Shown piece after piece: positions 11,301 to 37,600 of a stretch of 64,000 bases of DNA. Source of the stretch: Glaucostegus cemiculus (lineage: Eukaryota); assembly GCA_976551045.1 (NCBI GenBank), contig CDPCPM010000418.1:1922001-1986000 (forward strand), read 5' to 3'. How positions within the stretch are numbered: position 1 is the stretch's first letter; each line of letters begins with the position of its first letter. The translations under genes were made by a program, and so were the position numbers. The notes beneath the pieces are model-generated. The model saw only the letters and a list, made by a program, of their open reading frames with translations. It was not told the origin of the DNA and ran no database searches.

Positions 11301-13655
11301 GGCATTGGATCGAGCTTCCTGTACTTTGTCTGTTAACACCTTCCACCCCTCTACAAAAAAAAGTGTTTACAACAATCAGAAGCAAAACAAATTGGCCCAA
11401 TTTATTTTTTTCCATTATTGCCACAAAATTCAGCTTCTTATTAGTTAGGCAGATCCGTAATTCCAGTTGTTAGGCTACAGCAGACTTAATCATATTCGTG
11501 TTTGGACTATGTCCTTCCCCAAACTGGAAACCCAGAAGTAGTGCCATACACTGTCAATGTTGAAAAGGATAAAAGACAACATGCATTTACATTGTGATTT
11601 TCATATCTCAAGATGTTTTAATGTATCCTATAGTCTATGTACTCTTTTGAAGAATACCATAGATAAAATCAGCAATCAATGGGCAGAAAGCAACATCTCA
11701 GCAATACTTATCACCAGATAATTGGTTAGAGGATGCAGGTTGAGGTTGAATTAAAATGGGAGAATTCACCTCCTCTGTGTCAAATACTGCTACAGGATAT
11801 TTTGCCTCTACCTACAAAGGAACCTGTAGGTCTTTCAATATTTTATCCAAAATGAAAAAGGTTCATTATTCAATAAACCTTCCTCAATAATGCATGAAAT
11901 TTTGTGGCCAAGTCAAAGTACTGTGATTCGAATCCACAATCACCCTACGTGGACCAGAGTACAATCAATGGAACTGTGGATGACACATTGGGATCGCATA
12001 AAATAAGATAATTCCATGATGCATTTTGATTTTTCAGGGAATAGAGTCCAAAGAACTGCATGTGCTCCAGTGTACTGTGGTATGTGCACTGAGGATTGAC
12101 CCTGGTCGAAAACCTTGTCCAGCAATTTCAAATCTCTATTGTACTGCCATAACATCTATTTCACTAGTGTTGAATATTGCCTCTCTTAAATGGTTTGTAA
12201 ATTACTTTTCAGTTTAAGCTTTTATTATTAAGCTTCAAAATCAAGTAAGTATCAAAATAAAAAGTCATGCAATAATTGTGATCAGGACTACCGGATATTT
12301 AGTCCCAGATAGTTTCTAACGTCAGTGTGGACCAATTATGAAGAGGTACTTGGAAATAAAATGATTTCTCTGTCAACCCTTAGTGGCCCAAATGCAATCA
12401 TATTGTTAATCAGTTTGTTTCTAAGGAGATGGAAATATTCTCTGCATCAAACTCCTAGGATCAAAGCCCTCATTCCACATGAGCATGGTCAGCAAATTAA
12501 ATCTACCTTCAATGTTATCACACTGGATCTGAAACCCATCATCGCTTGTGATTTGAAATAGCAGGCCTTTTTTCGATTTCTTCTCACTCCTGATCTCTCT
12601 TCTCTTTTCCTCTTGCTCAAGCAGAGCAAGTAGTGGAGAAGTGAAGGTGTCATCATCATCTGAACTTTTAGATTCTAAGGGGAAAAGAACGAAGATTATC
12701 AATAAGAATTTTATTTCTGGCTTTCACATACCAGAGCTAGGTGTGAGCAAGTCCCAAGACTAAAATTTGCTAATATGGCTGGAAGGGTTAAAAGAACCTG
12801 CTAAAAAAAAAACCCTCACTAAATAGTACAGCAAGCTTTTCCATGCACAATATAACATGATCATGAGTGCAACACTGGTTGTGTCTACTTCTAAAATGCT
12901 TTGGAGGGTTCTCTCTTATGATCTTAGCTAGCAGTGCCTATTAGCAAGCATCCCTCCATACCCAGGATCATCCTGGTGAATCTTCTTAGAACTGACACCA
13001 ATTAAATAATATCCTTCCTTAAATAAGGGGATCTAAATTGTTCACAGTACTCCAGATATGGTCACATTTATGCATTGCGGAGTTGCAATGAAACTTCCTA
13101 TCTTAATGCTCCAACCCTCTTGAATGAGAGCCTACTTTTCATTATCCTTCCCTACTATCTGCTGCCCTTGTGCAATAGCTCTGTTTCTCTATGAAATGCA
13201 AGTCAGAAGTGTAGGAAATGCTCAGCAGGTCAGGTGGTGTTAGTGAAGAGAGAAAAACCAAGTTATTACAAATGGATTGCTTAAAGAGTGGGCCAGCTCG
13301 GATACAAGCAGATAGTGCATCACCCAAAATTCAACAATTCCCTGCAATTTTTTTGATTTTCATTAACTTGCCTTATTTTACTCTCTCTGTACTTTATCAT
13401 CTGGGGGCTTTAGATTTGTCTCTCTAGCTTTCTGGGAACATTTACAATGAACCCGTTGAATTTCCTCATCTAATGCCTACAACTGCTCTAAAACTGACTA
13501 AAGTAGTTGTTTCTAGCCTACTTTTACTAAAATATTTCTCACTCTAGTAAAATTGGTCCACCCCAATTTAGAATTTTAAAAACTTCTTCTTAATTAATTT
13601 AGAAAACCTATGTCCTCCACACCTTTTATTCTGACTGTATCTCAGTTAACTTTAA

Positions 13656-13699
<44 letters not shown>

Positions 13700-16600
13700 A
13701 CGCGTGTGCGAGCGTGTGTATTTCTGCTCTTGGGTTTTTCTATAACTTTATCTTCTTTGGACTACCATAGCATTTCCAGTAATGTGACGAGTCCATTTCT
13801 GTTCTCATTTGATGATCTAACATTTCATTTCTTTTGACTGCTGCAATTGCTTCTTCAACCAATATTGCTGCCACTAATCTTTTTTTTTAAATTTCTTTTC
13901 TCATCTCCTTTGAAAATTCTAATCAGGGAAGTTAAGCTGCCAGTTCTGTTCCTCCAACTGTGTTTCAGTAACAGCGATCATACTTTGCACCTTGATTGCC
14001 TTCAGCCTTGTCTGCTTTATTCACTATACTTTTTGCATTTAGGTACATCATTTAGTTAGACTTCTTTGCTGGCCTTTTTGCAACATTTTGTTCTGCCTTC
14101 CAAACTCTAATTTTGCGCCTTCCATTTCCAGCTCTGCTTTCTCCCCTTCAGAAACTACCTGTGGCCTCCCATCCCCTGGCCAGCTAGTGGAAACCCTTTT
14201 CTACAGCACCAGCAAATCTGCCTATGAGATAGTGGCCTCAGTCTTGTTGCGGTGCAACCTATCCATTTGTTAATATAGATCTCATCTTCCCCAAAGTTGT
14301 ACCCAATACCCCTGGAATCCTCTCTTGTGCACCAACTCTTGAACCAGACACTCCCCTGTAGGATGCTCTTCGCGTACTCACTTACATGTAGCATCAGGAG
14401 TGAAGATTTCTGTTTATGAGAACCTGCTTCTGAATCACTAACTCTCAAAATATGCCAGCAGGACATCCAATATTTTTCTACCTATGTCATCAGCATCTAT
14501 ATGGATCTTGATCTCTAGCTTTTCACCTTAGGGAGTATTCTAAAGCAGTTCAGTGATTCCTCAGAGTCAGAGAGATACAGCATGGAAACAGGCTCCATGG
14601 CTCACTGAGTCCACATTGATCATCAACCGCCCATTAATACTAATTCGATATTAATCCCATTTTTGTTCTCCCCACATTATCAACCTCCCACCCCCCAATT
14701 CTACCACTCACCTACATTAAGGGCAATTTACAGGGTCCAATTAGCCTACCAACTCCACTTTTTTTGGGGGCGTGGAAGGAAAGCAGTCCACCCAGAGGAA
14801 ACCTACGCAATCACAGGGAAAACTTGCAAACTCCACACAAATAGCAACCAAGGTCAGGTTTGAATCCAGGTCTCTGGGGCTGAGGAGCAGCAGCTCTATT
14901 AGCTGTGCCACTGTAAGAATGACTGAGGACTGAACCATCTGAAGAACAAAATAAGTTTACAACACAGAAACATATCCCAAATGGTATATGCCAATGTTTA
15001 TGTCCCATGAGAGCTTCCACCCATCCAAGTCTGTAATACTTTAACAGCTTATGCCTCTGTTCCTTTCTCACTTGTGTGTTACCCAAGTTCCCCTTAAGAG
15101 GAACCCTTTAAAAATAAAAAAAGCCATCTTTCAGGAATGTACCACTGACTAATTCACTACCTTAAAGAGCTGGATTATTGAGGGAATCTCAACTGTTATT
15201 TCTTCTGACATCAAAAATACAAGCAATTAGTAGTAGCATATACATTGAGTCATAAACACTTCTAATTGCTCCCTGGTACAGAGTTTCTCAGAATCCCACA
15301 ACCTGCTTAGTTGTCTTATTTTGATAAAGTGATAACAGTGCTTCCAATAATTAGTTTCTTCTCCTCATAGTTCATTACTCTATGACAATGCAAGTTGCCT
15401 CGCATTTTCACTTGCTGGCCTACTTTGCCATTGTAGCTGATAACATAGGAAACACTTGGCCATAAGAACATTTCCTCTGATTGAATTAAGCAGAAATCTG
15501 AAGGCTCTTGAGCTCATATCCTGACAGTCCAAGTGCTCCGATTACAGTATTTCCATGTTTTTGCATGATACTTGATGCTTACCAGTGACAAAGTCATCTT
15601 GTCCTTCTGTATTTGAGGTTGCTGTGTTCATTGGTTCTAGGGGCTGCAGTATTGGCACATGTTCCATTTGACTGGGGAGAGAAAAGACACCACTTTAATT
15701 AACAATGTCTCAATACAGATTTGCAGGCAATTACTTAGGTAAACACGAATTCAAGCACTGAATACCTAAAAAGGGGAGTCAATTCTAAATGTTTTGAAAT
15801 GTTTTTGACACTTATTTTAAATTAGGTATCAGCTGCAACTCAGCTTGATGCGTACTAAACTCTGAACTAGAAAATGCATGTTCAAGTTTTACTTCAGAGA
15901 CTTGAGCACAAAAATCTGTCAGCATCTGACAGTACTGAAAGCATATTACAGTACAGTAAGAGGTGACATCTATCAGATGAGACAAGTTGAGGTCTATCTG
16001 CCCTCAAATGAACCATACAATCTTGTAGCACTATTTGAAGCCCAACAATGGCTGATATAACGGTTATTTTTTCCCCTCAACCAACAGCATTAACAAACAG
16101 ATCTACTAATTGCAACACGTTGCCTGTGGGACTTTGGTGTGTACTGATCACTACATTTCCAACAGTATTATAGTAGCCACATTAAATAACTTCTCAACTG
16201 GTTCTATAATTCCTTGGAACAAACTGGATTGTTACAGGTGGAAATTCATCTTCTTTCATTAAGGAATAAAAGGTAGACCTGAGTAGCGTGCTCCTGCCAA
16301 ATCTAATAACTCTTTATAACTTTATTTCACAAAGCTCTGCACTTCCTTCTTAAACTTTCCTAAATGGAGAGAAAAGTTAAAGGGACATGAGTAATCAGGG
16401 TGGCTTCATATTCACTGGTGTTTCCCAAGCCCAACCATCTTCAGCTGTTTCATCAATGACCTTCTTTCCATTATATGGGCAGATGTGGGATTTTACTGCA
16501 TAATATTCAATTCCATTTGCAACACCTCAACAAATAACGTAGTCTATCCCTGCATGCTGCAAGAGCCAGTCAACATTCAGGCAGTGGCAAGTAATGTTCG

Positions 16601-19600
16601 TGCCCCAAAAGCGCCAGGCCATGACTATCTCCAACATGAGAATCTAACCATTTTGACATTCAACGGCATTATCATTACCAAATTTCCTATTGTCAACATC
16701 TCGGGTGGTAAGGGGTATATGAGAGAAGAGCAGGGACTGGGTATCCTAGGGCAAGCATCTCAGCTCTTGACACTCTAAAGACTTAAGGCATAAGTCAGAG
16801 TGGTGGAAGACGCATCACTTGCTTGGAAGGGTGGAGCTCCAACAAGAGTCAAGAAACTCAACACCATCCAGATAAATCAGCCCACTTGAGTAATACTCCA
16901 TTCATCACCCTAAACATTCAGTCCACCCAACACCAACATATTGTGGCTGATGCACCATCTACATAATGCACTGCAATTACTCCTTAGGCTACTTCACAAC
17001 ACATCCAAAACATTCAACTATGACTACTGAGAAGGACTTCAGGCATATGGAAACACCACTACATGCATGTTTCACTCCATGTTGCACAGCATCCTATCAT
17101 GAAAATGTATCACCATTCCTTCATCATCATGGGTATAAATACTGGAATTCCCTATTTGGCAGTACTTCAGGAGTATCTTCACCAGAGTGATTCAAGGCAG
17201 CAGCTCGCCATCACTGGGCAATAACACTGACTTGGCCTTGGCACTGACACCCAGATCCCAAATAAAGATTTCCAGTCACCTCTTTACAATGCTGGTTAGC
17301 CATGGCTAGACTAGATAGGCTGCTCTGAGATGAAGTGCATTCACATGAGGGACAGAGATCAGGGATGTGTTCTAAGTGTTACTGACAGCAGGTGTATACT
17401 CCCTTCTGTTCATTTTCCATATTTGACCAGGCAAGGATGCAATTAAGGTAGTGAATGAATGGGAACTAAATGTCCAAGCCAGGATGATATGGACTTGGGA
17501 GGTGATAGTTTGTCCTATGCATCTGAAGCTTTGCACTCCTGGGTGACAGCATTTGTGTATTGAGTTCATCTCCATTCCTGACTCTTGGTGGAGTGGAGCT
17601 TTGATACTGGGCTCACAAATGGTTTCTATAACACTGAAAAACCTGCATGTCATGGACATCAGAGAGTTGCTGAGTCTCCTGCACTCCCTCCATTCACCAG
17701 AGGTCCAGTTGAAATCCCAAGATCTTTTAGGTCTTGGGATTTCAACTGGACCTCTGGCTTCTGGTGCCCATAAAGCTATTTCTTTTCACTTGAGAGGGTG
17801 GAACTTCTAGTCTAGGAATGCCTTACATTTGCAGTAGTTTAAATGCAAACATAAGCATCCACACCATTCTGCTTTTCCCTTACGGGAATGGTTTTGGTAA
17901 CATCAGTGCCAGCTGTATCCACATAACCAATCTTCTTTTCCGCTTCCCTTTTTCTCAACTCAACCTCTTCCGACCAAGATACAGATGGTGTTAGCCTCTG
18001 TCTCTTATTCCGTCCCCAAGGGGCAGAGACCGTTGGGAGCTTGAGTATTTTCCCACCCCTTCTACCCATCAACATTTTTCCTGTAGGATGTCAGGTCAGC
18101 TTGCTGCTACCCATACTGGAAGCAACCAATTCAAGTTACATACTTTTCCCCCTCTGAAGCATTTTCCTACCTGGGCACATGGCATTGAGCTGAGCATGCA
18201 TTAAGAAAACAACCCTTGAGGTCACTCTGCCTGCTTTTCTCTGACAAAGAACTCAAACGGTTATCTAAAGTCATGACAGCAGAGATGATGTCACTGAGCA
18301 CATCAAGTCTGTAGCAGTTCTCTGCAGAGCAATCAAGTCAATGCTACTTCTCAAAATTCCCCAGCAAAATTGATACCTTCAAACATTTACCCAATTTCCC
18401 CTTGAAAGTCATAACTCAACTTCTGTCCACCATACTTTAGGTGGTGCAGGACAGATCATAACTACCTCATGAGCAGTAAGGTCACTCGTGGATCTTGTAA
18501 CATTCATTACCTCCTTTGGTCCTCCAACATTATACTAGTGAGATTAATTTCATTCTTAAACATGCAATTTCAATAAAAAGATCGTCCCATAAGCTCTTCT
18601 CACCTTGGTGAATCAGAATCCTGGTGGGAATCTTCATGCTGTTGCTCATCAAGTTCCATAGCATCTTGCACTGTTGCCTTTATTCTTACAGGAACAGAAC
18701 TGAAACAATATTAAATGTTACAATCAGGGGACAGTGTTGTCAGCAGATTTATTTAACAGAGTGACAACAGCATTAAGGCTATCAAACTTGCTTCATGTGT
18801 CATCACATTGTTCTTGTGTGATCATAAATTTTAAAACTGTAGCCTCTGACTATGCCATTCCTGCTAATTCAATTATTTCTTGCTTATAAACAATATTTTC
18901 CCAATAATTTGTAACAAATAAATTACATTATCTGAGATAGGAGATAACATTCTGCCAAACCAAAAAATAACACCTCTGAATTTTGACGATTCCCATCATT
19001 AGGTAGCTGGTAGGTTCCAATCAGATATCTGTCCAGAAATGAGATGAGTAACTACTTCCAAAATGCCCTCTCTCTCCATTGATTTTTGGTTCTAGAAGAA
19101 CCTCATATAGAAGTACTCATGTTAGCTGAGAAAAATGAACACATAATGGATGCAAGCTGAAGAGCTTTCAGTTGAACTTTTGCTTAGATCAATTTGCAAT
19201 TCACTGCTACAATGCTCCTATTCAAAATCAGTTCACCAGATGCCAGGAAAGCTCATTCAGTTGATGCACTTGGTGGTGAGAAAATCAAAAATCTTTCAGC
19301 AAAGAGCAAGCCTGGGAGAGGCATGATGTGTGGGCAGCTGAGATTAACATTAAGTTAACAATACTGCCTCTATGAATTTTAAATCAATTTTTACTCAAAG
19401 ATATATAATACTTCAAGTAACTTGAATTAAGCAATTAAAAATAACCATAAAGGATTTTTTTGTGCAAGATTTCAATTCAACTACATTTAAAATAAAAATA
19501 GACTGCTTGGAGATGAAGAAGAAAAAAAAGACTAGATCAAAAAATATATTTTGTAGACAAGAAGATTGAGGGATATGAGAAGTGCTTATTATTTACAAAA

Positions 19601-22600
19601 TTTGGTACAGAGTTCAGAATACTGTCTTCTGGTCCAGTATACCATTTGCTATTCAGAGTGCTTCCATGAAATAGCCGATAACCAGACAAATTCCTTCTAC
19701 TCACAACCCAGGAGCTTATGATGTAAGGGGAAAAGGAACATGGAGGATCACCATTTAAGGCAAACAGGAAATTCACACAAAAATGTATATATCCTTCAGT
19801 AAGGTTGAAAAATTGCTACATTTATTAGTTTCCAAAAGTATTTTCTAAAATATTAAAATGACAAGGAAAGTAAGACTTTGAAACATGTACTTTGGTCCAC
19901 AGTGTTCATGCAGACCATCAAGTAACCATCTTAATCCCACCTTAATACCAACATTCAGTCTATAGCCTTCTATACCTTGGTGATTCAGGTACTTGTCTAG
20001 GTACTTCCTAATCGATGTGAATCAGTCAGTGTGTTCCAAACACTGTTAGAGTAAAGAAAATTCTCTCAGATTCCCCCTGAACCACCTACCCTTTACCTTA
20101 AAACCTATGCCCTCTGAATTTAAGCACCTACTACGGGAAAAGTGTTTCCTATCAACTTAAGCCCCCTCATAATTTGTATACCTCTATCAGGTCCCCACTG
20201 GACCTCTTTCACTGAAAGGAAAGCAAACCCAGCCTATCCAGTCTCTTCCTGTAAATGAAAAACTCCATCCCAGGCAACATCCTGGTCAATTTCCTTTGCA
20301 CTTTCTTGAGCGCAATTATGTCCTTCCTGTAGCGTGACAACCAGAGTGGCAAGTTACTCCAGCTGTGGCCTAACCAATATTTTATAAAGATGTACTATAA
20401 ACTCCCTGTTCTTACATTATATGCCCCAGCTAATGAAGGAAAGTATCCCATATGCCTTATTGGCCACCTTCAGGGATCTTTGGACTAGTACACCAAGGTC
20501 TCTTGATTCCTCATTACTCTCTAGGTCCAACCATTTATGCAGGAATGTGGCATTCTTAACATTTGTTAGAAGCCGATTTAAAAAACATCGTTATTACTTA
20601 CCCTGCACTAGCGGATAGGGGCATGTTAGCTGAATCAGACTCCAGAACATCTTGATGACCTCCACAAGATTCAGTCATGACATGTACCACCTTGTGCTTT
20701 TTATTGCTCATTTTGTCAGAAGAGGATGATGTCCGTTTTACCCTGGGCTTGGTTCTTGGAGATCCTGGAGATACTACAGGCATACTACTGACAGAAGACT
20801 GGTCCGTGGTGGAGGAAAACACAGAAGTTACAGGAGCTGGTGAAGCCATGCTGGTGTTTGAAAATACAACTGTGTTGCTCATGACACTAGACGACACGCA
20901 CAATGTGGTAGTTGATATCTGGCCACCTGAAATGCAAACAGCATCTAACTGGGCAGTTGTTGCTACACATTTACTTGGCAACAGCTGAGTTCTCTGATGG
21001 TGTAGCTGATAGGTCCCTTCCTGGTCAGGTGGACTTGGTGCAACTGGTACAGAGACTGCTGGGGTGGAAGGCAGCAAGCATATACTCTGTGCTGGAGATA
21101 GGGGTCCACTGTTAGGGCTTTGTGATGGCCCTAAATGTTGAAACATTCCTGCTCCGGGCAATGATACTGCTTGATCTGAAAGTCCTAAACTCTGTTGACT
21201 AGCTTTGATTAACAGATTGCTTATTGAGCCAGTGATATCTGTTGTTCCTAGCAACATGGGAGCAGCTAAGGTGACTGAACTTTGACCCAGAATATGCCCA
21301 GTTACAGCACCAGCACTGGTTGCTGTTGTTGCTGCATGCATAGATACAACATTCAAAACAGACTGGCCTGATCCTAATCCTGATACATTTCCGGCTGCCA
21401 AATGAGTATTTTCTGGACCAATGACGCTTGTGGAACCGACTGCCCCCAGCGTTTGTTGAAGCTGAGGCACAGCTAAAGATGCCTGTTCAAAATACATCAC
21501 AGCAGACTTTGGACGTTTGATTATGTTTGGAATTGTTCGCTGGGGTCCTGTGTTTGCAAGTGCTCCTAAATCCACTAATCCTGACTGGTTAGTAATCCCT
21601 CCAGGGACCTGTGATGATGGAAAGTTAATTGAAGTCATATTCGGTACTATTTCTGAAGAAGAGCTTGAAGTTTGCTGGTACGAAGGTGCTAGTTTCTTGC
21701 CTTTTTTAGAAGGCAGTCGGTTTATTGGCCTTTTCTTAGCTTGAGTGGATCCTGGACTAGAGGTCATGGCAGTGACAAGCTCTGGCCTCTGACTGGGCTC
21801 TGAACTTAAGAGCTGAGGATCCTGAGATGGCTGGACCCCAATGAGGAGGCCAGAGGCAGAGTTGGCGCTGTTGGGCTGAAATGCTGATCCAGTGGGTCCC
21901 GCAAAGGAATGTAACTGAGGGTGTTGTGATAAAGTCATCAACCCACTGCTGTTGGTCATGGTAGCAGAAGTGTATATCGACTGTGAAGCTGGCAAGCTAA
22001 CATTTAAACCAGTTGCCAAAGCTGGGCTGCATCCCATAGAAACATTTTGCCCAAGAACTGTATTGTTTGCCTCTATAACTGCTTGTGCAGTTCCAACTGA
22101 AGGTGCTAGATTTATCTTTTGTGCAACTCCATTGGCAAGTGTCTGCAGAACATACAGTTGTCCATGTTGATTGAAAACAATGAGGTTTTCTGGTCCTGGT
22201 TTAGGGAGTGCTGTAGTCTCTGCTGTAGAACTTGCAATGGGAGAAGGTCCAGGACTATCTGGACTCGTGACATATTTCTGACCTTGAGGTAGCACTGAAG
22301 GTGAAACAGATACTGGAAGGACAATTGGTGAACTCGCGCCAACCCCTGTCAGATCCTGGTTGTTAAGTCCTTGTTCCACCTGAGTGCAGGTTGGCGAAGT
22401 TAGCTGGTCGGTGTCCATGTGACTTTGCATGAACTGATCTGATGCCATGTGACTTTCTCCAGATGGCTCCACCACTTGATGTCCCATCAAGGAAACTTCA
22501 GGTTCATTCACTGTCACTGATTTCTCCCCAGTCACTGTCACCCCCTTTTCCACTGTCTCAGCGGCAGGTAAATTTAGTACCGACTGATCTTCTGATGGGG

Positions 22601-25600
22601 CTAGCTGGGATGTTGAAATAACAGTAAGGCTGCTGTGGCTTTGGTTAGAAACAGTTGGGCTGCACGTTGTTAAAACAGAAAGGTCAGACGGCAACTCAAG
22701 CGGCAGTTCAAATGGCTCCTCAGCAGGAATGGAGGCCGAGACGACACTTTCCACAGGTTCCGTGCTAGGCAATGGCTGGGAAAATACTTCAAACAGACTG
22801 CCCATATCCTTTCCTCTGTTACTAACCAGACCTAAGCCCTCACCCAGTGTTATAAGTTCAGATGATGACGACTCTGGACTTTCCCCTAGTGCCTGCATAG
22901 ACTGTGTATTCTTAAGAACAAAGTCCATGATGTCAGATGGGAGAATATTGCCACAATCATCACTGTTATTATTGTCTGAATCATTGGCAGCCTTCAACAA
23001 GTCTGTGTTGAAACTATCCAGCAAATTCTTTTCAGAAGGCGTGCTGGAGTGGCCTCGTCTTGGAGTGTCTAATGAGGTGAGAGAAACCTCCGCCAAGGAG
23101 TCTTGGCCCTGAGACTTCACTCTACTCACTGGAAGGCAGTTATCTAACTTTGAATCATTACCTTTCAGGTCAGAAACTGTTTTAATACCATGGTTCTCCT
23201 TTTCTCCATCAACTGCACCACTGTTAATTGCTCCATCAAGGTCTAGGCTTTCGGTTCCATTTTCTTTGGATTTTATTTTGTTCACCTGCGTTGTTTTCCC
23301 TGTTGTTGTGGTTACACTAACATCACTTTCTGTGCCATCATCAACACCATCAAGTTGACTTATCCTGGGTATGCGGCAATCTTCCTCACCGTCAAAGAAA
23401 CTGCATGGCTCAAGCCTTCCCTCTCTATCAGAGGTGATAACTGTTCTCGTGAAATTGTAGTAGTATTCCATATCTTCATCAGATGATGTACTTGGATCAT
23501 CAGCTCCATCTACCTGTCCTTGAGTTGACTGCTCTCCTCGTTTTTTCCCAGAGGGATCTCGATAGAATGGAAAATCTTCTTCACCGTATGATTTTACCCC
23601 ATAAAAGGGAGTCAACCCAAAAAAAGTAGTTGAGCGTGCACGGGCACTGCGGCGGGGATACCTCCTTTTGTTTGAATCATTGTCCTGAGCTTTGTTCCCG
23701 TCACCATCCTCCTGTGTAGTCTGATTTCCACATTGCAGCACGTGCTTTTGAAACAGATTCTTCACCCTTTGTTTGTAGACCTTGTTGCATTTTGGACACC
23801 TCAGGTTTTCCTGCTCATTTTCTGGACTTCCTGCCATCGAAGGTGGCACAGCTGAGGACAACGGCTCATCAACTTCCTGAGAACTGGCCGACATGGATGT
23901 GACCATACTTTCATCATGATCCTCATCAACAAGATAATCAGATTCTAAATATCCATGAATTTCTTGCTTTTGTGAAGTATGCATTTCTTTTTTGCGAATA
24001 TCAGCCTGGATCTTGTCAGATGGGGGTTGGACCCCTTCACTAATACTTGCAGAGAGATAATGTTCAGTGCTAGCAGATTTGTCACTAAATACCTGTTCAG
24101 GTTCTTCTATAGTTTGAGTGTTCTCAGCCAGTTCAAGTAGTGAATTGCTGGATGCTTTTTGATTAACCTTTAGATCTGCAGCAGAATCGGAACATGGGCT
24201 TCCCTCAAAATGCTTTCCTGTCTGTACTCTGCTGTTTCTGGGAAAATCAGCTGAGGACACTTTAGTGACTGGTCTCTTCTCTGTACAGTTTGACCGAGAG
24301 TATTCATTTCCTGCAGTCACAGTATGGCTAGCTCCAGCAGACTGTAACCTCGTTCTCTCAGTGCCTTGACTGTGAGTGTGCTCCTTGCTCGATTTTCCTG
24401 CATGCACAGTGTCCTTGTATTGCTCATTTGGTCTTCTGGAATCCTTTTGTTGGAAAGGTAACGTGCAAGTTTTTGTTTCTTTGGGGAGTGGTGTCACTGA
24501 ATTAGAATTTGTAAGCAACACACTGTTGTTACGTGCTTCTTTCTGTGATGTACGTGATGCTGGTACTGTGGGAACTGAGGTAGACGTCAATGGTGACACT
24601 GACGTTGTCACTGAACCGTCCAGCGTACTTGCAGGTGGATTGGTCTCACTTCGAGAATGGTTACCAGATAAAGTCAGAGAATGCTCTTTTGAACTGTGAT
24701 GCCCAACACATGTTGGCTCTGTCCTGTTAGGCTGTAAACCTAATGTGTGAGAAACTCCTGTATGATGTACAGGGACAGAATCAGCACTACTGATGCGTTG
24801 CCGGCTGGAAGGACCGGTATACGCCTGGAGTGAAATGCCAAGTTTGTCTGTCTGAAGTGCTTTACGAAAAGTTTCAGCAGGTTGGCTTCCTGTGTCTGTA
24901 TCTGACGATACACTGAGGGAGGTCAGTGGTGATGTATTGATGTTACCACTTGATCTTACATATGTTATGCCCATTTGGGAAGGAGAAGCCATCTTGTGCC
25001 TGGAATGTTGGGGTGATACTGAAGTTGTACTATGTCTCCTAGAAATGGTGCTCCGTCTCCCTGACGACAGCAGGGCATCGGCAAATGTAACTTTCTCATG
25101 AATCATTGGTGTGGGGCTCCCTTTAAAAAAAACATAAGTTATGAATATTTCAAATCCCATTTCTACAATTGTTTATCAAGATGCAAGGACTAGAAAAAGA
25201 ATCATCTATTATTTTCTGTTTTGGTTCCAAGAACTTGTAACACTAACAGGCCAGTCTTTCCAATTAATTAAATCAAGGATCATCTGAACTGCCACTCCAC
25301 TCATCCTTTGAAACTCAGAGATGCATGGCCTCCAAGTAAGAATGCCAATTTATTAACAAATGCTATGCATTTGTACTCAGTCAGATGGATTGAGATTACC
25401 CAACAAAATAATTTCCTGTCGTACCTATTCGGATGATAAAGAAAACCTTCATCCTCTTGGAATGAGCTATATTCAGAAGTAGGCCAAATGATACAGCATA
25501 CCATATATCCCCAAAACTACATTCTTACGAGCTGAAGTGAAGGTACATGCTGATATATCACTTCAACAGCATGAACATTCCTACCCAATATACTAAATGA

Positions 25601-28600
25601 TTCACAAGAGAAACTAGAGTATGAGTGAAAACATATTTTAGTTTCCAGTATCCTAAAGTGCATATTAAGAATCATCTCAAGAACAATTAAAATGTATAAC
25701 ATTTTAACAATAAATTATATTGCCATTATAACCAGCACTGCAATTCAACAAAATCATGGGTGATCCAATTGTGGGCCTCAACATTTTCTACCTTAGTCCT
25801 ACAAACTTGGAATTCCCATGGTCCAATATTCTAAGCCTATTTAATGGTGCATATCTTTCATGCCAAACAATCTAAATAGAGAAATTGCAAGAGTGGAGTT
25901 CTGGTTCATGAAAAACAAAAAGTTAGCATGCAGATACAGCAAACATTTAAGACAGCAAATGGTACAGTGGCTTTAAAAATAAAATTAGAGAAGTGTTGTT
26001 CTGATTGTACAGGGTATTGGCAAGGTCACACCTGGAGTACTCAGTACAGCTTTGGACCTCTAATTTAAGAGCCAGCATTGGAAGCAATTCAGAAGAGATT
26101 TAATCAACTAATTCCTGGAATGAATATGTTGTCCTGTTGAAAACAGCTCAAAAATGTTAAACCTGTATTCTTTGGAGTTTGAGGTGTGTCTAATGAAAGA
26201 TATTAGATCCTCGGCAGGAGAGCATGGCAAGAGAGATGCTGACACAGAGTCTCAAATGAGGAGACATAATTATGAAGGCAGTCATTTACAACGGAGGTGG
26301 GTATAAATTTCTTCTCACAGGTGGTAAAACTCTGGAATTCTTCACCCCAGAAGGCTGTCGAGGCTCTAACAGGGGAGTTATTTGAGGAGGTAGATACATT
26401 TTTGAAAGATCAGAGAATTGAGGGCTTTGTGGAACTACCACAGAAGAGGAGTTGAGCATTGGGCCAACTCAGTCATGATCATATTGGAGGCTGACTTGAG
26501 GAGGTAAAATGGCCAACTCCTGCTCCTATTTTCTTGTACGTTCCTGTGTGCGCGCAAGGCAACAGAGATACCTGGTGATGGAAGGGGCCTTGATCCTGTG
26601 TTAGTGGATCGGCGAGACAGGGAGAAACTAGATATTTGAGTTCTATTTCCTGGCTGCGATCTAGGAGGTATTGGCCCAGGTCCATGAGAGGCTGGATGGC
26701 GATCTGGCATTTCTGATGAACCTGTGTTTTGATTCTCTGTTGTGTCAATTTCTGTCAAAGAGAAAGAGAAACCAAGTCAGTTATTAGCATTTGACCAAGG
26801 GAAATGGAACACTGCAGGCTCATAGAATGAAAGAGCAAAGAATGACGCCATCTTGACACACAGCCCACCTGAGTTTTAGAAGTCCATACTCTCAATGCAT
26901 TGTTTGATGGAGGTAAAGATCCTCCATCAATCTAGATATATCATTACAAATGACAGCACTTCTGAAAGGTAAAGATCCAAATTTCCCCATGTTAGCCACA
27001 CTTCTGAACATAAACAGTGGAATTTCAATGGACTGATAGGAGGAGTAATACTGTCTGAAATTAGACCCTTCGGCCCACTGAATCCAAGCTGATTCTAAAA
27101 GAACCATTTATACCAATTCTACATTAATCCCATTTTATTCTCCCTACATTTTGATCAACTCCCCACAGATTCTGCCACTCACCTACGCTTCAGGGGACAT
27201 TTTACTGTGGCCAATTAACATTCCAACCCTCACGTAGGAGGAAACAGAAGCATTAGAAAGAATGAAAACCCAATGATGCTGGAGGAACTCAGCAGGCCAG
27301 GCAGCATCCACGAAGAAGAGTAGGCAGTCAATGGTTCAGGTCAGGACCCTTTTTCAGGACCTGCAGCATCATCATGCTTTTCATCTAGACTCCAGCATCT
27401 GCAGTCCTTTGTTTCGCTAGCATCATGAGGAAACCCATACACAGGGAGAACATGCAAACTCCACACAGCCAGCACTCAAGGTCAGGAAAGAATCAAGATC
27501 ACAGGCTCTACTAGCTGTGCCACTGTATCACTTCTAGCTACAGAAACATGAACTCTACATCAGATTTTGACTGTTACTTTCCTGGAAAATTCTATATTCT
27601 GAGCTGGTGCTCTGCATTCAGTCCCTGGATGTCCATACATTTTAGTACAAAGTAGCATTGTAGATAGTGCTGCTGACACACAGCATCAGCTACCCGGATT
27701 CAAACCCTATCCTGGGTGCTACACACAAAGTGCTGAAGGAACTCAGCAGGTCAGGCAGCAGCTATAGAGGGAAACGTCGACTGACCATTTCCCTCCATAG
27801 ATGCTGTCTGACCTGCTGAGTTCCTCCAGCACTTTGTGTGTTGCTCCAGATTCCAGCATCTGCAGTCTCTTGTGTCTGGGTGCTGTCTGTTTAGAGTTTG
27901 CATATTCTCCCTATGATTACGTGTGTTTTCACGAGTTTCCTCACACATTCCAAAGGCATGAAGGTTGGTTGGTTAATTGGCTTGTGTACATCACCCTTGG
28001 TGTAGGTGGGTGGCAGAAGAATCACAGCAGAGTTAATGGGCACGTGAGAGAATAGATTATAGAGAACTAGGTGAGACCAATAGGATTGATCTGAGAGCAA
28101 TGAGTTGAATGGCCTCCCCATACATTGCAAGAAATTACAATGTGAAAAATGACGTCTGCCTGCAAAAATTAGCTACAAAACTATGAGAGGGCCTGAAGGA
28201 GGCTCCTGATTGCAGAGAGAAACAAGGTACATGTATTAAAAGTAGTCACTCCAGTGTTTTGCACACATTTTGACAATTGAACTAATTTTCAAATTTCTTA
28301 ATTTATTGTGCAAAGTAATTTGATGTACTCAGTTTACAAGGCCACAATCAAAATGAATTATATCTTGCTTAATGCATTAACTTTTGTTTTCACATTCCCT
28401 TATAACAAAGGGTATTCAAGTGCCTGAGAGGTTGAACAAAGTTTTTCTGTGTGGGCAAAAGGTACCTTTAATGCTGGAGTCATCAGTATGCATGACGATC
28501 AGTCACATTATCCTACTGGACACACACGATAGTTTGGAGCAGGATGTGGAAGAGGAAAGATGGCCCAACTCAGCCAGGAATATAAGGGATTGCTGGGGGT

Positions 28601-31600
28601 TTGCTGAGCAGCACACATTGCCACCTTAAGACAGGAAGCCAGTGAAAGTCATACTGAAGAACTTCTTCAACTGACTTTACCTACCATTCTGATACATTCC
28701 AGCTCAATTATTGAGTATTTTCTTTTTCACCTGCTGAGTGGCCCAATGTGTGCTTATGGCATTTTTCTTATGCAAACAATGTTCTTTACTTGCACCATCT
28801 ACGTACCTGCTGGGCTGCTTGGACTATGTGCCACGGTTCTGTTTTCACTGTGCTCTAAAGTGCTGTTTTCTTCTGCTTCCACAGGAGGAGGTCTATGTTC
28901 CAGGATCTTGCATGTGTACACACATCGCTTCCTAGCATCAGTCGTGCTCCAGTACACCCTTGAACACCTGAAAATGTACACAACATGCCAACAAAAATTA
29001 TCAGAAACACGTGATAGAACATGGAAGCAGCCCAGATCAGTGTTACCAACCACCAAACAAAAGTTCTAATTTTAAATTTTTCCTACCTGTACTTAAATTT
29101 TCTTCTTGATTTAGCAATTGAGGTGCATTCTCAAAGCCCAAGATAAAGAACACTACTAAGGTTGAAAATAGTGGAAGTAGGTGAACCAATTCACGAGACC
29201 AACAAGATTGACTCCTACACCTCTCAGCTCAAATATAACAACTTAAATGAAACTACAAAATATGTCAGGTATTTTCCAAGGCAACTACATCATAAAAATA
29301 AATGCAGAAGTGATGACAGACAAGTGAGCAGTTGAGGATGATTTTGCAACAATGCACTCCAAGCGGTAGGTCTGGCACACAGAGATTGCAGGCCAGACAG
29401 TGTTAGATCTCCATCTCCAGCCCACTTCTTTCAAATAGGGCTTCTGCACTTATCATGGACTACACTGTATAAGAACTCATTTGTAAATTTAAGTTCATTA
29501 TTTTATTAATGAAACTAGCAATACAAATGTATATTTATTACAATTTCAAATTTAGAAGAATCCCAACTCAAATGTTTTTCTTTTGTTACTGTGACAACAA
29601 ATGCTGCAGCCTAAATCTGATCTGCACGGTTTAGATAAGAAAAATCTAAAGGAGCAATAGAAAATAATGTTAAAGCTTTACATGAAATATTAACATCTTC
29701 ATTTTCAAATGTCAGAGCAGCTGTGAACATCTGGTGGTTAATGCAGTAACAAATGTTCCTGAAATTTGGAAGAAGGATGTCAACAATATTGAACAACAGT
29801 GTACAGAAAACATCCTGCAGCACTTCATGGCATAGGAATACAAAAGAAAACTTACTGATAGCCAATGGGAAAAAGCTTTGCTTCACAGTCAGAAAGATCA
29901 TTGAGTATCCCCAAAGAATCTATTGTCATAGAACCTAGATTGAAGGATGAAACTAAATTATTATGGAAAACACCTTCATCAGTAAATAGTTCGACAGTTG
30001 CTATTTCACAAAAGGTGATTGATATTTACTCAATTATTTGTCTTAAATCCCAGATAATATGTTTGGTTAATAAAAGTATATTTAAGAGATGTAGAACAAA
30101 TGTGCATATTTCAGAGTCAGATCACAGATCAGCCACGTTCACAATGATTAGCAGAACTGGCTCAAGCAGCTGATTGGCCTAACCTATGTCTTCACACAGA
30201 TGCTTTCACCAAATTAAAGTCAATGTTTTGACAAATATTTGACAATTTGCCTCATTTTTTCCCCACACATCACATTCTGTCATTATAAAAATGCAACATT
30301 CTGACATTTCACTAACCAATCATCATGTGGATACTCTCTGGCTCCAGGCCAGTCAGGAACTTCCTTCTTAAAGTGATGTCCTCAAAGTCAACAAAAATCC
30401 TTCTTAAAACCTCAAATCCATCCTCAGCCACAGTCTGTAACAAAGATTGCATGGCACATCAAAAATGACAGAGAACATTTTCCTCCATAAAGAAAATAAT
30501 GGAGATTTAAATACCACATTTTGTGCCTTCAATTCGCAAAGCAAAATAATAAAAGGATGGTTTTACTTAAGGCTCTAAGATTACTACTCAGGGTTCTCTT
30601 ACAAAAAGAAATCATGTAAACCAGAGTACATTTCTCACAGAACACAGTCGACAATTTATGATGACCCTGTTATCAGTGAACACAACTTTTTTCAATTATT
30701 TTAATGAAAACAAATCAGTCTCAACCACTGAAGCACTTTCACAGACCTTTCAGCAGCTGCTACAGAGTGATACTGGCATACGTGCATGTCACTTTATTTG
30801 TCTGCATTCTCTGTCACAAATGGGTAAATGCAATTACAGCAAGGGGAAAAAATTCAAGTGCGATATGGAAGTGGGACAAACTGAATAGGTCTTTCAAAGA
30901 ACAAGGCAGAAAGTGGGAGTGGGAGATATAAATAATGAAGTATACAGGGTGGCAAGAACTGAAAAAAAAAAAGCTTGCTCTGAATAAACTCACAAGAAGT
31001 TTTTACAAAGAAAAGCAAAGTTATGTCGATTTCTTAAATATAGTTGGAGGAGACATTGTAACTAAAATTCAGTAATGGGCAGACTTGTTAAAGAACTACA
31101 TTTCTGTCAACCCTCACTTTAAATGATGAGGATAAAATACCCACAATGCAAGAAAACTATAAATAAATCAAGAGGAGAAACTAATTAGATTCATCAGAAG
31201 ATTAGAAACAAAATGGTCAAGGCTAAGGAAAAACTAATGAGAGCAAATGTGGAGACACTTATGGAATGTCAGCTTCAAAACACTGTTGTAAGTATCAATA
31301 GTTCATGTGCTAGTTCTGAACTTCCAAAAACTCACATCATTTAGAAATAATCCCTTAGGTTGGAAAGTTATAAATGTCACAATATATGCTGAATAGCAGT
31401 TACACTGCTATTTTTCTAACTCTTATTTAGGACAGAGTGGACAAGCATTTGGATAAATGTAAGCTGATCAGAATGGCATTTGTAATGGGCAAGCCCTGTC
31501 TAACAAACCTAGTTGAATCTTTTAACTGACAATGAGCATGGTATATGTAAGGTAGTATATCAATTTTATTAATGTAGACTTCCAGAAGGTATTCAACAAG

Positions 31601-34600
31601 GGCAAGAAAGAGACAGTTAAAAATGAGAGCTTTTGTATTTGGAAGCAACCTAATGGCTGAGACAAGAAATTCGTTGGGAGGTAGGAGACAAAGTGCAAGA
31701 ATAGTGGAAATCTCTACTTAAGTTGCAGGCTTTCATTATACTTATAAATGACTGGAAGGATTTGGCATCCACTTGCTTAAGTTTAGTGAGAATAAGGTGG
31801 TGATAATCATGAACATAGGAGCAGAAAGTTGCAATGGAGCGGTGACAGATTAAATAAGCATTCAAAGATGTGAGTGATAGAGTTCCAGTAAAATGGGAGG
31901 GCTACAGAGGAAAAAGGTGAAGGGAAACTGAACCGATAGGATTATTCTGCTGAATTTGATGGGTCAAGTGGCTAACCTGTGTTGTGATAACTATGTGGCA
32001 AGTGGTAGATCAGGGTATATTCTCAATGGCAAGAAGCTAGGAAACATAAGAGTGGAAGTTATGAGTCTCAGTACAGAAACAGTTAAAAACACACTGGACA
32101 GGTAAAAGAAATAATGAGAAAGGTTAACAGAATCTCAAAGTGTGAAGTAATGTATTTTGGAAAGGGAGGAGGGATGTGCAGTCTAATAAGTGTAAAACAT
32201 ATGCCATGAATAGTTGGGCCCTGAGGAAAATTAGGAACTAAGGGACCTTCGTTCACACGTCCAAAGATCTAAGAAGATGGCAGCACACGTAGTCAAGGGA
32301 GTGAAGCAACATTCAAGATGTTTGCCTTCATTAGCTGGGGCATAGAATGCAAGTGCAGGAAGGTTTTGGTACAACTTTATAAAACATTGGTTAGGCCATG
32401 GCTGGAATGTTCTGTGCAATTCTGGTTAACACACTATTAGAAGGATGTGACTGCAATGGAGAACATGCAGAAGAGATCCACCAGGATGTTGCTTGTGAAG
32501 GAACGTTTCAGTTATAAGGAGAGACTGAATGGGCTGGCCTGGTTTCCCTTGCAGCAGAGGAGGCTGAGGCAGATGGTTGGGTGGGGGTGGAGCCTGATGG
32601 AGGTATACACAGTTATGAGAAGAAGAGCAGCACAGATAGGGGAGATGGTTTAAAAAAAATTCCCTGTAGCAATGGTGTAAGACCAGAAGGCATAATTTTA
32701 AGATGTGGAGTAAGAGAGAATCTGAGGAAGAATTTTTTCTCCCAAACAGTGGTTGAAATGGGCCAAAGGATCTGTTTCAACACTGCATGACTCAATGAAG
32801 GCTGGAATAGAAAAGTGTAAAGTTATGTTATTGCTACTGCAGTTCTGGGCACTGCATTTCAAGAAAGAGAGCAGCATGAATTCCACAGACACTACTACTG
32901 ATAGGATTAAATTATGAGGACAAGTTGGACTGACTAGGCTTCCATTCATTTGAATATAGAAGATTAAGTAATCAAACTGAGATGCTTGAGATGATTAAAG
33001 AAGCTGATAGAGAGAAACTATTTCTTCTGGTCAGTACATTCAAAATAAAGGATACAAACTTAAATCAGGAATGGCTGCCCAGAGGGGATGTCAGAAATTT
33101 GTGCATCACCTAACAAGTACTGGAAATCTAGAACGGTCCCTTCCAAAAGCTATTAACACTGAAAATTTCCAAAATGATGTGAGTTTTTGTTCCAATAAGG
33201 ACAGTGCTGCAGGCACAAGTATTTCTGATGTATAATTACTTCTGTAATATAGACAATGTAGCATCTCAGCGAGGTTTCAAAAACATAATAATGACCAGAC
33301 CTGTGTTTAATGCCATTGATTAAAAAATGAATATTGGCCAAAATACTGAGAATAACTTCTACAAAATAGTATCAAGGGATCTTTTATGTCTGCCTAGGAG
33401 AGAAGATTTAACATTGGAATGCCAACTTTGATTGTTAGGCTTGAGTGGGACAGACCCAAAACCATGCAACTCAGACCAGAGAGCTGTCCAATGAGTCATG
33501 GCTGATGCAGTTATTGGTTACCCACAAGAACAAAGGAAGTAGAAGCTGACTCAATGACCCCTTGAGGCTGTTCTCTCATTCAAAGCTGAATTTCCACATC
33601 AACACCACTTCCTCCTTATCATAATATCATACACCTTTGTGCACCATGAGAATCAAATAATCTACATGCAAGAGCCAGTGATACCACCCCGTTGGGCAAA
33701 ATGGTCTTGTATGCCATGTTTACTTCTTGGTTATTTTTCTAATAAAACAAGTTCAATCATTCAAAAGATTGGTTTGCTTTAAAAAAAATTGAAAAAAAAC
33801 CAGTAATCTACAACTCCAATTCACTGTCAACCAGATTCTTCCCTATATTATTGTGCTACTCACTAGGACTTACAATACCAGCAGGTGCTTTGGTTGGTGG
33901 ACTGAATTATTGAGGTAAATTGCTCATATACCTTGAACCTACCTCTCCCTTGACCAGATCTTTATGCCGCTGACAATATACTTTCTTGTCATCCAGGAAC
34001 ACACAGTTTTTTGCTCGAGCACACATGAAGTGATAGTTGCTCTGGCAAGACGTAAGGCAGCAGCCAACAGTAGCCCCAGCTTTCTGGCAACGCTCACAGC
34101 GCTGAAAAAAAAAGCATGAATTTCCATTGGCTAATAAATGTTACATTAATGCTATAAAGCAAAACCTCTTTGGACAGCCTTCTGTCATGATATGGCTTGA
34201 TAAAGTTTAACTTTATGACAATGTTATCAAATCACCATCATAGACAATTTGCTGCTGCTTGTTCCCCACACAAGTGTTCAGTGCTGACTACTGACAGGTA
34301 TTTTTGTTCCAGAGTGCTCAATTTATTTGTATAGTCTATGTAGAGAATGATTAATTTCCAAATTAATAAGACTCCAGACAGTAACTGCTGAGTATTTCCA
34401 GCATTTTCTGTTCTCAGGAGATTTGCACTTCATTATTCAAGGTTTATTTGATTTTTTTTTGTTATTTACTATTCCCTTTCCTATTTCCATTATCATGATA
34501 TCAATGACTAATCTATTAGATCACTCCCAGCAGAATGTGGAAAGTATAGAGTACATGGAAAAGTACTGTAATAAACATTTTAAAACACCCTTAATGGGTA

Positions 34601-37600
34601 TAAAGTATATGTGGTGAAAATATAAAGAATATTATCAACAATGAAATGAACTTTATTCTCTCAGTGTTATGCTGCTTCTTCATCAGGGCAGTCTTCTCTA
34701 CAGAACACTGAAAGACCAAGAAAATTCTTTACCCTTTACTTTATACCAGGTTAGGAAATTCCTGTGGAACTACTGGAGCTCACCAGTTGTTTGCCTCTGA
34801 TAACAGCCATGTGGACATTCTTCAATGAGCCATCATCATCCTCAAAGACTTCCGCTGACCACAAGGCACAGTTTATGTGTGTCCACTCATTCTGACCGAT
34901 GTACAGAAGACGTCCAGCATCCTAAAAGATTCAGTTATATCAATACTTGGATTCAAGATAGGTTTACAACACCACTGGAATCGCCATGTCCCAATGGTTA
35001 GTTATTGTGTAAGCTGAAGATATCCTTTGAGATAACTCAAATGAAGTACTGTTTTCCCTCAGCCAGCTTTAGTGAATCTGTAAATAAAAAACTGGAAATA
35101 CTCAGTTCTATCGTCTCAACAACTTTCAGAACGCAGTAAGAACCAAAAATTCTTCAAACAGTTTACTTTTTAATCTATTAATAACCTTAAGGAAGGAATG
35201 GTACGATAGCGTAGCGGTTAGCGCAACGCTGTTACAGCGCCAGCGATCGGGGTTCGATTCCTGTCGCTGACTGTAAGGAGTTTGTACGTTCTCCCGTGTC
35301 TACGTGGGTTTCCTCCGGGTGCTCCGGTTTCCTCCCACATTGTAAAAGACATTACCATAAAAAAAGGTTAATTTGGGGGTTTAAAATGGGCGGTGTGGAT
35401 TTGTTGGGCTGAAAGGGCCAATTACCATGCTGTAAATAAAATTTAATTTAATTTAATTTAAAACTGGTTACTTTTCTACCACTTATTTATTTGTCCTCAG
35501 AATGTGGGCAATTCAGGCAATTTGTTTGATGTAGCTAGCTGTCCTGAGTCTGCTGCAGTCTCATGGTGATGTTAAATTCGGACAATGCTGGTGAGAACCC
35601 ACTGACAATGCAAGAGTTGCAACACATGTCAAATTAGGATAGAGGGGAAATGAGGTATCTTTCATGGTGGAAAACGTCAGAATAGGGTGATGCTGTTGAT
35701 AATATATAATATATCCTGTAGTTCACTAATGTTACAGAATGTATTATCTAGTGACAGGAATTCCAACTCAGCCATGCATCTTGTCCAGGAAGGCATTAAC
35801 TTCCAAGTGCTGATGTAGCTGCACTCATTCAAGCAAGATTCCCGCATTACACTTCTGATTTAAGCCTCATATGGTGGAGAGGTTTTGATGAATCAAGTTT
35901 TTCTACTGAGGTATTCCCAAAACGTTGATGGGGTGGAACTTGGAAATGATGTCAGTATTGAAAGTTCAAGAAGTGATCATTGGGCACTGTCTTGCTTAAG
36001 ATGGTCATTATAAACTATTTAACATAGTACTAATTTAACTGCAGCTCATCAGCCAAAGTCTTGTTTTCTCAAGTCCAACTATAGGTTGCAGCAATAAAAG
36101 CTACCACACTCAATTTTAAAGCTGTCAACTGGTACTTTCAAGTATACATTAAACCAATTTTAATTTGTAACAAATGAAACAGCATTTGACTGATGAAAAT
36201 TGCAGAAGTAATTTCTGATAGTCAATTGCATATCTACGGAACTACTTCAGAGCCCACCAGAGTTATATGCAAACGTGACACTAGGCATTTTATAGGTAAC
36301 ACTTTAAATCAAAACGTAAACTAAATTTCCAATACATCATGCAAGCAAGCCATCATGCAATAATTCGATCACAGCAATGTTTAGCCTTAATTTGGTAGAA
36401 TACATTTATGTGCAAAAATAAATGGCATGTTTTGTAGAAGTATCAACTTTAAATTGGTTGCAGATACTCACATTTTTGTTGTCATCTCCATATTTCAGGC
36501 AAAGTACACACTGCCTGTTGTCTTCAACATCTGGAGGAGGGTCAATATCTGGGCTCTCTTCTCGACTTCTGTCTGAGCCTTACCAAAAAAATCAAGCTTA
36601 AGTTAGTCCATACTTAAATAGTTATATTAATTAATCATGAATGTTCTTCTTTAAACACTTCCAAAACTTCCACAAGATACTAACATAGTAGTACTCTGAC
36701 AATAGTTATTCAGAATTGATATTTGCCTGGAGAGACCTAAAAGTATGTTGAACTAAATAAGTAACTTTTTTAAAAACATTATCAACTCTGCAGGGATCTT
36801 GATGAATCCAGCTAAATGAATACAGGTCCTCCCCAGGTTAAAACAGGGTTCTGTTCCTGAAAACTATTCTAACCTGAACAGTTTGTAAATCAGAAATGAA
36901 CCAAAACAGTGTACGGGAGAGGATCAAGGAAGTATGTTGGGAAAGTGAGTAGGTGCAGGAAGAGTGGCCACCAGCTGGTTTCACTGACTCAGTGAGTGGG
37001 CGAGTTTGCTTAGCACTCCCACTTCTGCTCAGCCCGGTTGTTGCGACTCAGTGAGAAAAGGCATGTGGAAATACTCCATTCCCACCCAGTAGAGGATGGC
37101 TGCGGCAGCTGGCAAATCCATCCCCTGGGCAGGACATGTAGGACAATCTGTCTATAAGATGCAGGGATGATAGACAAGTATGGCCCTGGTCCAGTTATTC
37201 ACGATGTAGATTCATGGCAGAAATTGCTTCTCATCTGGCATTTGGTTTGTGGCCTCATGGCCTGACAAGACCAAAAAAAGTTCTATGGCTTACTTGTTAT
37301 GCAATTCATCTTTATAAATTTGCATTGGGTGAAGGTTGGAGGGATAATGGATGGAGGAAGAACATAATGCGAATTGAATGTGTTATGATTTGATCAGTAT
37401 ATAAAGATACAAAGTTTGAATTAAACATGCAATTTATGCACAGATTTTCAGTTTTAATTCAGTTTCAGAAATAAAAAGATGAAACGATTGCTGCTTAATA
37501 TCTATGGGTTCTACTCGAATGCTAATTCAGCTACATACAACTAATTGGAATCAAACACTAATATTCTTTAAAGCTTTCTAATTATAACAATACTGGCTCC

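Follow-up and report, generated by a model that had tools for sequence, protein, structure and literature searches.

We analysed a stretch of 64,000 nucleotides (the window) of Glaucostegus cemiculus, assembly GCA_976551045.1, contig CDPCPM010000418.1, positions 1,922,001 to 1,986,000, which carries on its minus strand a large part of the KMT2A (MLL1) gene and, within the giant exon of that gene, a short segment predicted to fold as a single CCHC zinc finger (Table 1). The giant exon corresponds to a minus-strand frame of 1524 codons (20598-25172), whose residue numbering is used throughout. On tblastn Rhinoraja KMT2A matches the window in 27 aligned pieces, which descend in order through the span given in Table 1, and its residues 2075-3578 match window positions 25121-20595 with 88% identity. 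The closest species-labelled relatives in a protein search are ray KMT2A proteins, with 91-95% identity over residues 400-640 of the frame, and on a quick tree, which misplaces Protopterus on a long branch, the window protein groups with those of batoids. The host gene is orthologous to KMT2A and shows the order PHD-ePHD-FYRN-Taspase sites-FYRC-SET.

Translation of the finger gives LRCPKCNKVYKQRVKNLFQKHVLQC, with the pattern C-x2-C-x14-H-x3-C and seven Lys or Arg but no Asp or Glu in 25 residues. Shuffling the exon 20000 times reproduced the exact pattern twice and a looser one 73 times, the pattern having been picked post hoc. Zinc fingers of the ββα type have a core formed by an aromatic and a large hydrophobic residue; here these positions are occupied by Y466, four residues after the second Cys, and F474, three before the His, both invariant. 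A Krüppel-type DNA-reading C2H2 array, with tandem fingers, conserved linkers and His-His ligands, is not what lies here, as the interval holds one CCHC finger. The two Taspase1 sites, QVDGADD and QLDGVDD, are labelled by what we take to be the consensus of that protease. The finger is followed after 20 residues, and not some 17 as counted in a first-pass annotation of this DNA, by the basic block KRRYPRRSARARS; counted from the end of the finger, the Asp lies 74 residues on in Taspase site 1 and 127 residues on in site 2. Going by the KMT2A domain order in PMC8022399, the finger would end up close to the C terminus of MLL-N once the protein is cleaved; an unannotated extra domain at that place is what the annotation had proposed, and no Pfam family reaches its curated cut-off for the finger.

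Table 1. Position of the KMT2A features in the window.
Feature	Position	Strand	Basis or remark
KMT2A gene part (PHD fingers to SET start)	2239..59674	-	tblastn; extends past both window ends
KMT2A giant exon, ~4.5 kb, containing finger, linker, basic block and both Taspase1 sites	20602..25120	-	ends placed by inference, AG/GT beside tblastn ends
Predicted CCHC ββα zinc finger, residues 457-481	23730..23804	-	translation, conservation, AlphaFold2
Ligand codon C459	23796-23798	-	
Ligand codon C462	23787-23789	-	
Ligand codon H477	23742-23744	-	
Ligand codon C481	23730-23732	-	
Polar/acidic linker, 20 residues, predicted disordered	23670..23729	-	AlphaFold2, pLDDT <50 at model residues 34-40 and 42-45
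Basic block	23631..23669	-	in every jawed-vertebrate KMT2A examined
Taspase1 site 1, QVDGADD	23496..23516	-	sequence
Taspase1 site 2, QLDGVDD	23337..23357	-	sequence

The conservation of the finger was examined in the best 120 of 317 protein matches at E up to 0.001, from which two without a species label were removed, leaving 17 chondrichthyan and 101 sarcopterygian proteins. The module described at first pass is real: it lies in frame in the giant exon, and its four ligands, which the annotation had suggested looking for in other cartilaginous fishes, are present in all 17 chondrichthyan proteins among the matches listed (10 species of rays, skate, torpedo ray, sharks and chimaera). Across these proteins 21 of the 25 finger columns are invariant and the variation is confined to the hairpin, residues 466-481 being fully invariant (16/16). 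Between the window and the chimaera all 25 finger residues are identical, against 28 of the 50 and 85 of the 200 residues upstream, 12 of the 20 linker residues and 958/1506 over the exon. When the exon was scanned in 25-residue windows, 112 out of 1482 equalled or exceeded the conservation of the finger, which puts it in the top 8%. Furthermore, a word search with the finger only gave 17 candidates, all of them chondrichthyan KMT2A. Hypanus sabinus has two KMT2A copies that agree at 1178/1506 giant-exon residues (78%), and both retain the finger; when they are compared with each other the finger matches at 24/25 residues versus 32/50 upstream.

The finger is missing in all 101 sarcopterygian proteins listed (coelacanth, lungfish, amphibians, reptiles, birds and mammals), none of which shows so much as a CxxC in the 200 residues leading up to the basic block. 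It is likewise missing in the three teleost KMT2A proteins with species labels and in 16 of 16 further KMT2A relatives without them; of the 12 such relatives placed on the quick tree, eight form a clade that appears to be the ray-finned fishes. The earlier claim that human KMT2A has no finger here agrees with the mammals among the sarcopterygian proteins, five primate species included, all of which lack it. Human KMT2A itself lay outside the set, and for it the claim leans on the domain list in the available part of PMC8022399, which has no entry from FYRN to Taspase site 1; the human protein shares with that of sharks the basic block and the two Taspase sites. A library-wide search of 1.84 billion representatives, with the finger plus basic block as query, gave 25 matches, of which one spans both parts, 16 cover the basic block only and eight, none of them KMT2A, the finger region only; these eight were set aside. 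This search missed the mollusc fingers described below, so that a diverged finger of lamprey, amphioxus or KMT2B could have escaped it as well. A VKVT-containing basic motif ~100 residues upstream of the basic block shows nearly the mirror image of the finger distribution, being found in 100/101 sarcopterygian proteins and 3/16 of the further relatives and in none of the 17 chondrichthyan or three teleost proteins.

An AlphaFold prediction, proposed at first pass, did return a ββα fold made of a hairpin and a helix. In the single-sequence AlphaFold2 model of 39 residues (mean predicted local distance difference test, pLDDT, 77.9) the strands cover residues 7-9 and 16-18 and the helix residues 19-32. 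With an alignment and 65 residues the pLDDT is 84-93 in the finger and 47-58 in the tail, and the finger and the basic block do not pack together in the model. From these models it is very probable that the segment folds as a zinc-bound ββα finger with C459, C462, H477 and C481 as ligands. A zinc-bound homodimer prediction scored 0.02, which weighs neither way. On Foldseek the top match is ZF2, the C-terminal finger, of NDP52 (root-mean-square deviation, rmsd, 0.6 over 24 columns, prob 0.96, E 0.26), and on VIA it is again NDP52 (Z 4.3, rmsd 2.3, 32 aligned), followed by the CCHC finger of MOZ (Z 3.5). Pfam gives no family at its curated cut-off for the finger, the best being ZNF512_C2HC (PF21276) at 17 vs 27 bits; the UBZ (ubiquitin-binding zinc finger) families PF18112 (16 vs 23.2 bits) and PF18414 (12.9 vs 25.6 bits) are also below it. 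No Pfam family was reported for the whole exon frame, and none at the finger position of the full-length shark proteins; PDB sequence searches with the finger gave generic finger matches only. The 39-residue piece was uninformative in the ESM Atlas, where it met 41-residue clusters at 0.94 with a recognition value of 2290, under the Atlas mark.

These results bear on whether the motif, lying in a disordered region, could be a chance arrangement of Cys and His or a relic without function. The lack of a Pfam family at cut-off, the low ESM Atlas value and the fact that bony vertebrates manage without the finger would agree with this, but the batoid-chimaera identity of 25/25 against 85/200 upstream, the retention in both Hypanus copies and the confident ββα model speak against it. 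Since the finger is conserved, this explanation is largely refuted and we give it hardly any credence.

The top structural match joins the finger to NDP52/CALCOCO2 ZF2 and the TAX1BP1 UBZ (PF18112; PDB 4xkl, 2mxp, 5aaq), which have the same C-x2-C-x14-H spacing in a gapless 22-residue alignment and share with it a Phe three residues before the His and a Val one after. However, the last ligand of the shark finger is Cys and not His, Lys stands at the position of D439 and the score is below the Pfam cut-off; moreover, the NDP52 and TAX1BP1 fingers end autophagy receptors whereas this one is internal to a histone methyltransferase. In PMC5010046 the NDP52 ligands are C422, C425, H440 and H444, with a spacing of x2/x14/x3, and the change D439K abolishes ubiquitin binding. 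The same spacing is given for CEP55 (C440, C443, H458 and C462) in PMC6817665, where E460 is modelled to form a salt bridge with ubiquitin R42/R72 and its loss weakens binding; TAX1BP1 also needs an acidic helix residue (Q770A/E774K), according to PMC4599966. The fingers of CEP55, NEMO and optineurin have the CCHC ligand set in common with the shark finger, the CEP55 spacing being identical, and optineurin is a structural match with Z 2.9 and 32% identity. They differ in that the shark finger has Leu at the E460 position, lacks an upstream NOA coiled coil, is not C-terminal and is net basic. Hence the likeness to NOA-type CCHC fingers put forward at first pass is borne out by the CEP55 spacing, but the name does not apply, as NOA designates a coiled-coil ubiquitin-binding domain (PMC6817665) and not a type of finger.

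In the gapless alignment with NDP52 (16.6 bits) K476, just before the His, takes the D439 position, and L479, two after the His, takes that of CEP55 E460. Of the UBZ features, the x2/x14/x3 ligand spacing is present and the acidic, ubiquitin-contacting helix residue is absent. Because this defining residue fails, we would describe the finger as having a UBZ scaffold and do not class it as a UBZ. The ubiquitin binding suggested at first pass loses ground for the same reason: with Lys and Leu where NDP52 and CEP55 require D439 and E460, and no acidic residue elsewhere, the finger probably does not bind ubiquitin in the canonical way. The opposite reading, a true ubiquitin-binding zinc finger that reads ubiquitylated histone H2B (H2Bub) or ubiquitylated partners, draws on the company the finger keeps, its closest sequence and structure neighbours including the UBZs of NDP52, TAX1BP1, FAAP20, WRNIP1, RAD18 and optineurin, on the hydrophobic L473 at the NDP52 I436 position, and on the existence of more than one binding mode among UBZ groups (PMC6817665). 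It has to contend with 25 residues devoid of Asp and Glu, with a Lys that is the very change abolishing binding in NDP52 (PMC5010046), with the Leu at CEP55 E460 (PMC6817665), with a Pfam Zn-C2H2_12 score of 16 bits against a cut-off of 23.2 and with the absence of a NOA or coiled-coil context, and we see only a slim chance for it.

A finger in the same protein family was found in invertebrates. A search restricted to proteins of 4546-5000 residues returned nine proteins among 43 candidates, three teleost KMT2A and six invertebrate Trithorax (Trx). Four of these six, all four lophotrochozoans (Ostrea, Liolophura, Lineus and Argonauta; oyster, chiton, nemertean and argonaut), carry a single match to the loose finger pattern, of the form C-x2-C-x12-H-x3-C, in the 1650-2600 residues between FYRN and FYRC, and none was found in that interval of Lytechinus (sea urchin) or Tachypleus (horseshoe crab). 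By Pfam the four have the architecture CXXC-PHD-ePHD-FYRN-FYRC-SET, and the finger block is the most conserved part of the interval among them. Like the shark finger, theirs is a single copy between FYRN and FYRC with C-x2-C-x-[KR]-[LV]-Y-[KR] and H-x3-C; it differs by the x12 spacing, by one to three acidic residues, by an extra conserved upstream block, by the lack of a canonical Taspase motif and by a low score. An acidic linker and then a YPxR-like motif follow in three of the four, and the sea urchin has the YPxR-like motif without a finger, as in bony vertebrates; the KRRYPRRSARARS block is a possible counterpart of this motif.

A hidden Markov model (HMM) of the shark finger finds two lophotrochozoan Trx fingers as its top two non-shark matches, and a second HMM, built from the invertebrate finger and tail, extends its alignment with the shark finger through KRRY(P) in most sequences, with a best E of 3e-4 in 144 proteins. 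The real shark tail was matched or beaten by 11-36 of 1000 shuffled tails and by 7-35 of 1000 other exon pieces (p ~0.01-0.04, post hoc), and a profile-profile comparison gave a prob of 78.5 over 30 columns. The upstream block of the lophotrochozoan proteins, 30-110 residues before the finger, has no Pfam match and no counterpart was seen in sharks; a second YP[L]R motif stands farther upstream. In mollusc Trx a nuclear-receptor-type C4 finger (PF00105) accompanies the CXXC domain, while the vertebrate proteins scanned have only CXXC.

The finger had been described as inserted, which the alignments do not show: in three MAFFT modes it lines up almost gap-free with a stretch of the same length, poor in Cys and His, in lobe-finned vertebrates. 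When that stretch was tested for a finger remnant, 0/11 sequences beat their own shuffles at p<0.05. In the window there is also no repeat or second DNA copy beside the finger that would hint at a mobile origin. An ancestral-and-lost history is favoured because lophotrochozoan Trx has a finger; common ancestry with it, through inheritance from an ancestral Trithorax, appears somewhat more probable than not, and loss in bony vertebrates is likely. Taken together the two are the best reading, but an unproven one, given that the similarity is generic and the spacing differs. The first-pass alternative of a domain ancestral and lost in mammals keeps its first half, while the loss has to be widened to coelacanth, lungfish, amphibians, reptiles, birds and ray-finned fishes. 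The sampling behind the ancestry holds no lamprey, hagfish, amphioxus or KMT2B protein among those returned.

The finger could instead have been gained in the chondrichthyan stem, for instance by capture of an x14 finger, CALCOCO/CEP55-like or other, with no relation to the lophotrochozoan one. The x14 spacing, found in NDP52 and CEP55 and not in invertebrate Trx, the merely generic similarity to invertebrate fingers, the absence from the echinoderm, the chelicerate and all bony vertebrates examined, and the distance from exon start to basic block (~480 residues in sharks vs 426-457 in tetrapods) are in line with a gain. Yet a lone CCHC finger would then have to arise twice independently within one interval of one family, both times ahead of a YPxR-like motif, and there is neither a gap opposite the finger in the lobe-finned alignments nor a flanking repeat or second copy in the DNA. 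We regard a gain as a serious possibility, albeit one with well under an even chance.

In the case of function, the first-pass alternative of a basic face for nucleic-acid binding, here extended to chromatin, suits the composition of the finger better than ubiquitin does. Single ββα CCHC fingers are also present in other chromatin proteins, and the MOZ/MYST C2HC finger (Z 3.5), Sgf11 (Z 2.0), the ZNF512 C2HC finger (PF21276, E 0.0046) and BCL11A ZF0 (rmsd 0.7) appear among the matches, all below significance or cut-off. Sgf11 places a basic helix on the acidic patch of the nucleosome. In the mechanism that we propose, K467, R469, K471 and K476, grouped around V470 and L473, would form an invariant basic face of the helix that contacts an acidic partner, and the arginine-rich KRRYPRRSARAR block 20 residues downstream would be the second half of a two-part grip. 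Chromatin is the most likely partner because the arginine-rich block sits one flexible linker away, and the target could be the backbone of nucleosomal DNA or, by analogy with Sgf11, the H2A-H2B acidic patch. Such a grip would give extra avidity at the cut end of MLL-N, and bony vertebrates would retain the arginine-rich half alone. With the partner deduced from charge, we advance this mechanism tentatively, at slightly less than an even chance. The explanation that combines it with the origin, namely an ancestral, near-invariant, zinc-bound finger, lost in bony vertebrates, that docks MLL-N on an acidic chromatin surface and not on ubiquitin, is the best we can offer and is put forward just as provisionally.

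Alternatively, the helix face could dock one particular non-histone partner that bears an acidic motif, either a cofactor or another part of KMT2A, in the way UBZ-fold fingers use it for myosin VI. A lone zinc finger is unlikely to read a DNA sequence by itself, and this established rule, together with the invariance of all 16 residues from 466 to 481, exposed hydrophobics included, suits a protein partner. The closest folds also bind proteins through the helix face, the TAX1BP1 and NDP52 fingers binding myosin VI (PMC4599966). No candidate partner was identified, however, and the strongly basic face with its adjoining arginine-rich block suits a polyanion equally well, so that we consider this rather unlikely, although it is the foremost competitor of the chromatin mechanism.

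Several points weigh against the combined explanation of an inherited, chromatin-docking finger. Two of the six invertebrates have no finger, so that ancestry requires at least three losses. The finger-to-finger scores of shark versus invertebrate (8.9-16.7 bits) are not above that of shark versus NDP52 (16.6), and the Cys-His spacing is x14 in sharks and x12 in invertebrate Trx, although a two-residue indel does not preclude descent. The invertebrates have an invariant KRLYRT second strand and a partly acidic helix, whereas in sharks it is the basic helix that is invariant. The downstream YPxR-like motif is absent in Liolophura, the tail test was chosen after the sequences had been seen, and none of the six invertebrate Trx has a canonical Taspase motif, so that the register is not fixed. 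The structure matches are all weak, with no Foldseek E <0.001 and every VIA Z <5, as is to be expected of so small a query. Zinc binding and partner are predictions, the partner being read from charge, and a specific protein partner would explain the near-total invariance no less well than DNA.

A bolder extension, which we hold to be improbable though worth stating, is that bilaterian Trithorax began with a finger-linker-YPxR module in its disordered middle. The module would be intact in sharks and lophotrochozoans and reduced to its basic half, through loss of the finger, in bony vertebrates and sea urchin, and the shark finger would be a charge-reversed UBZ fold that reads nucleosomes in place of ubiquitin. 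If this were true, KRRYPRRSARARS of bony vertebrates would be what is left of a two-part chromatin grip not described so far. The open literature yielded no described function for this block, nor any prior description of the finger in KMT2A/Trx, subscription papers, supplements and InterPro/SMART/UniProt tags lying outside the scope; sub-threshold zf-C2H2_jaz Pfam matches occur on two invertebrate Trx proteins and automated C2H2-type tags on some invertebrate Trx entries are possible.

The finger is a real, lineage-restricted extra domain whose predicted ββα fold is a known and ordinary one. KMT2A has been studied intensively as a gene of leukaemia and development, and its reviewed human map is empty from FYRN to the Taspase sites. 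A folded module that is the same in rays and chimaera and missing from the bony vertebrates examined means that the parting of cartilaginous from bony fishes was accompanied by a change at the level of domains; rays and chimaeras themselves separated about 400 million years ago. The medical reach of the finger is limited by its absence in mammals, and as a small, easily made peptide it lends itself to a partner search. It also draws attention to the basic block beside it, which bony vertebrates have retained.

Besides the finger, the giant exon has near-invariant blocks at 22716-22946 (residues ~743-819) and 23544-23669, with windows at 0.95-0.99 identity; the first of these includes a stretch which we take to be the transactivation domain. 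Three intronic frames, 8397-8885, 20417-20590 and 32273-32440, resemble decayed C-terminal fragments of a reverse transcriptase, presumably of long interspersed nuclear elements (LINE). An intronic run of TG dinucleotides at ~13640-13700 shows as alternating Cys and Val in the translations.

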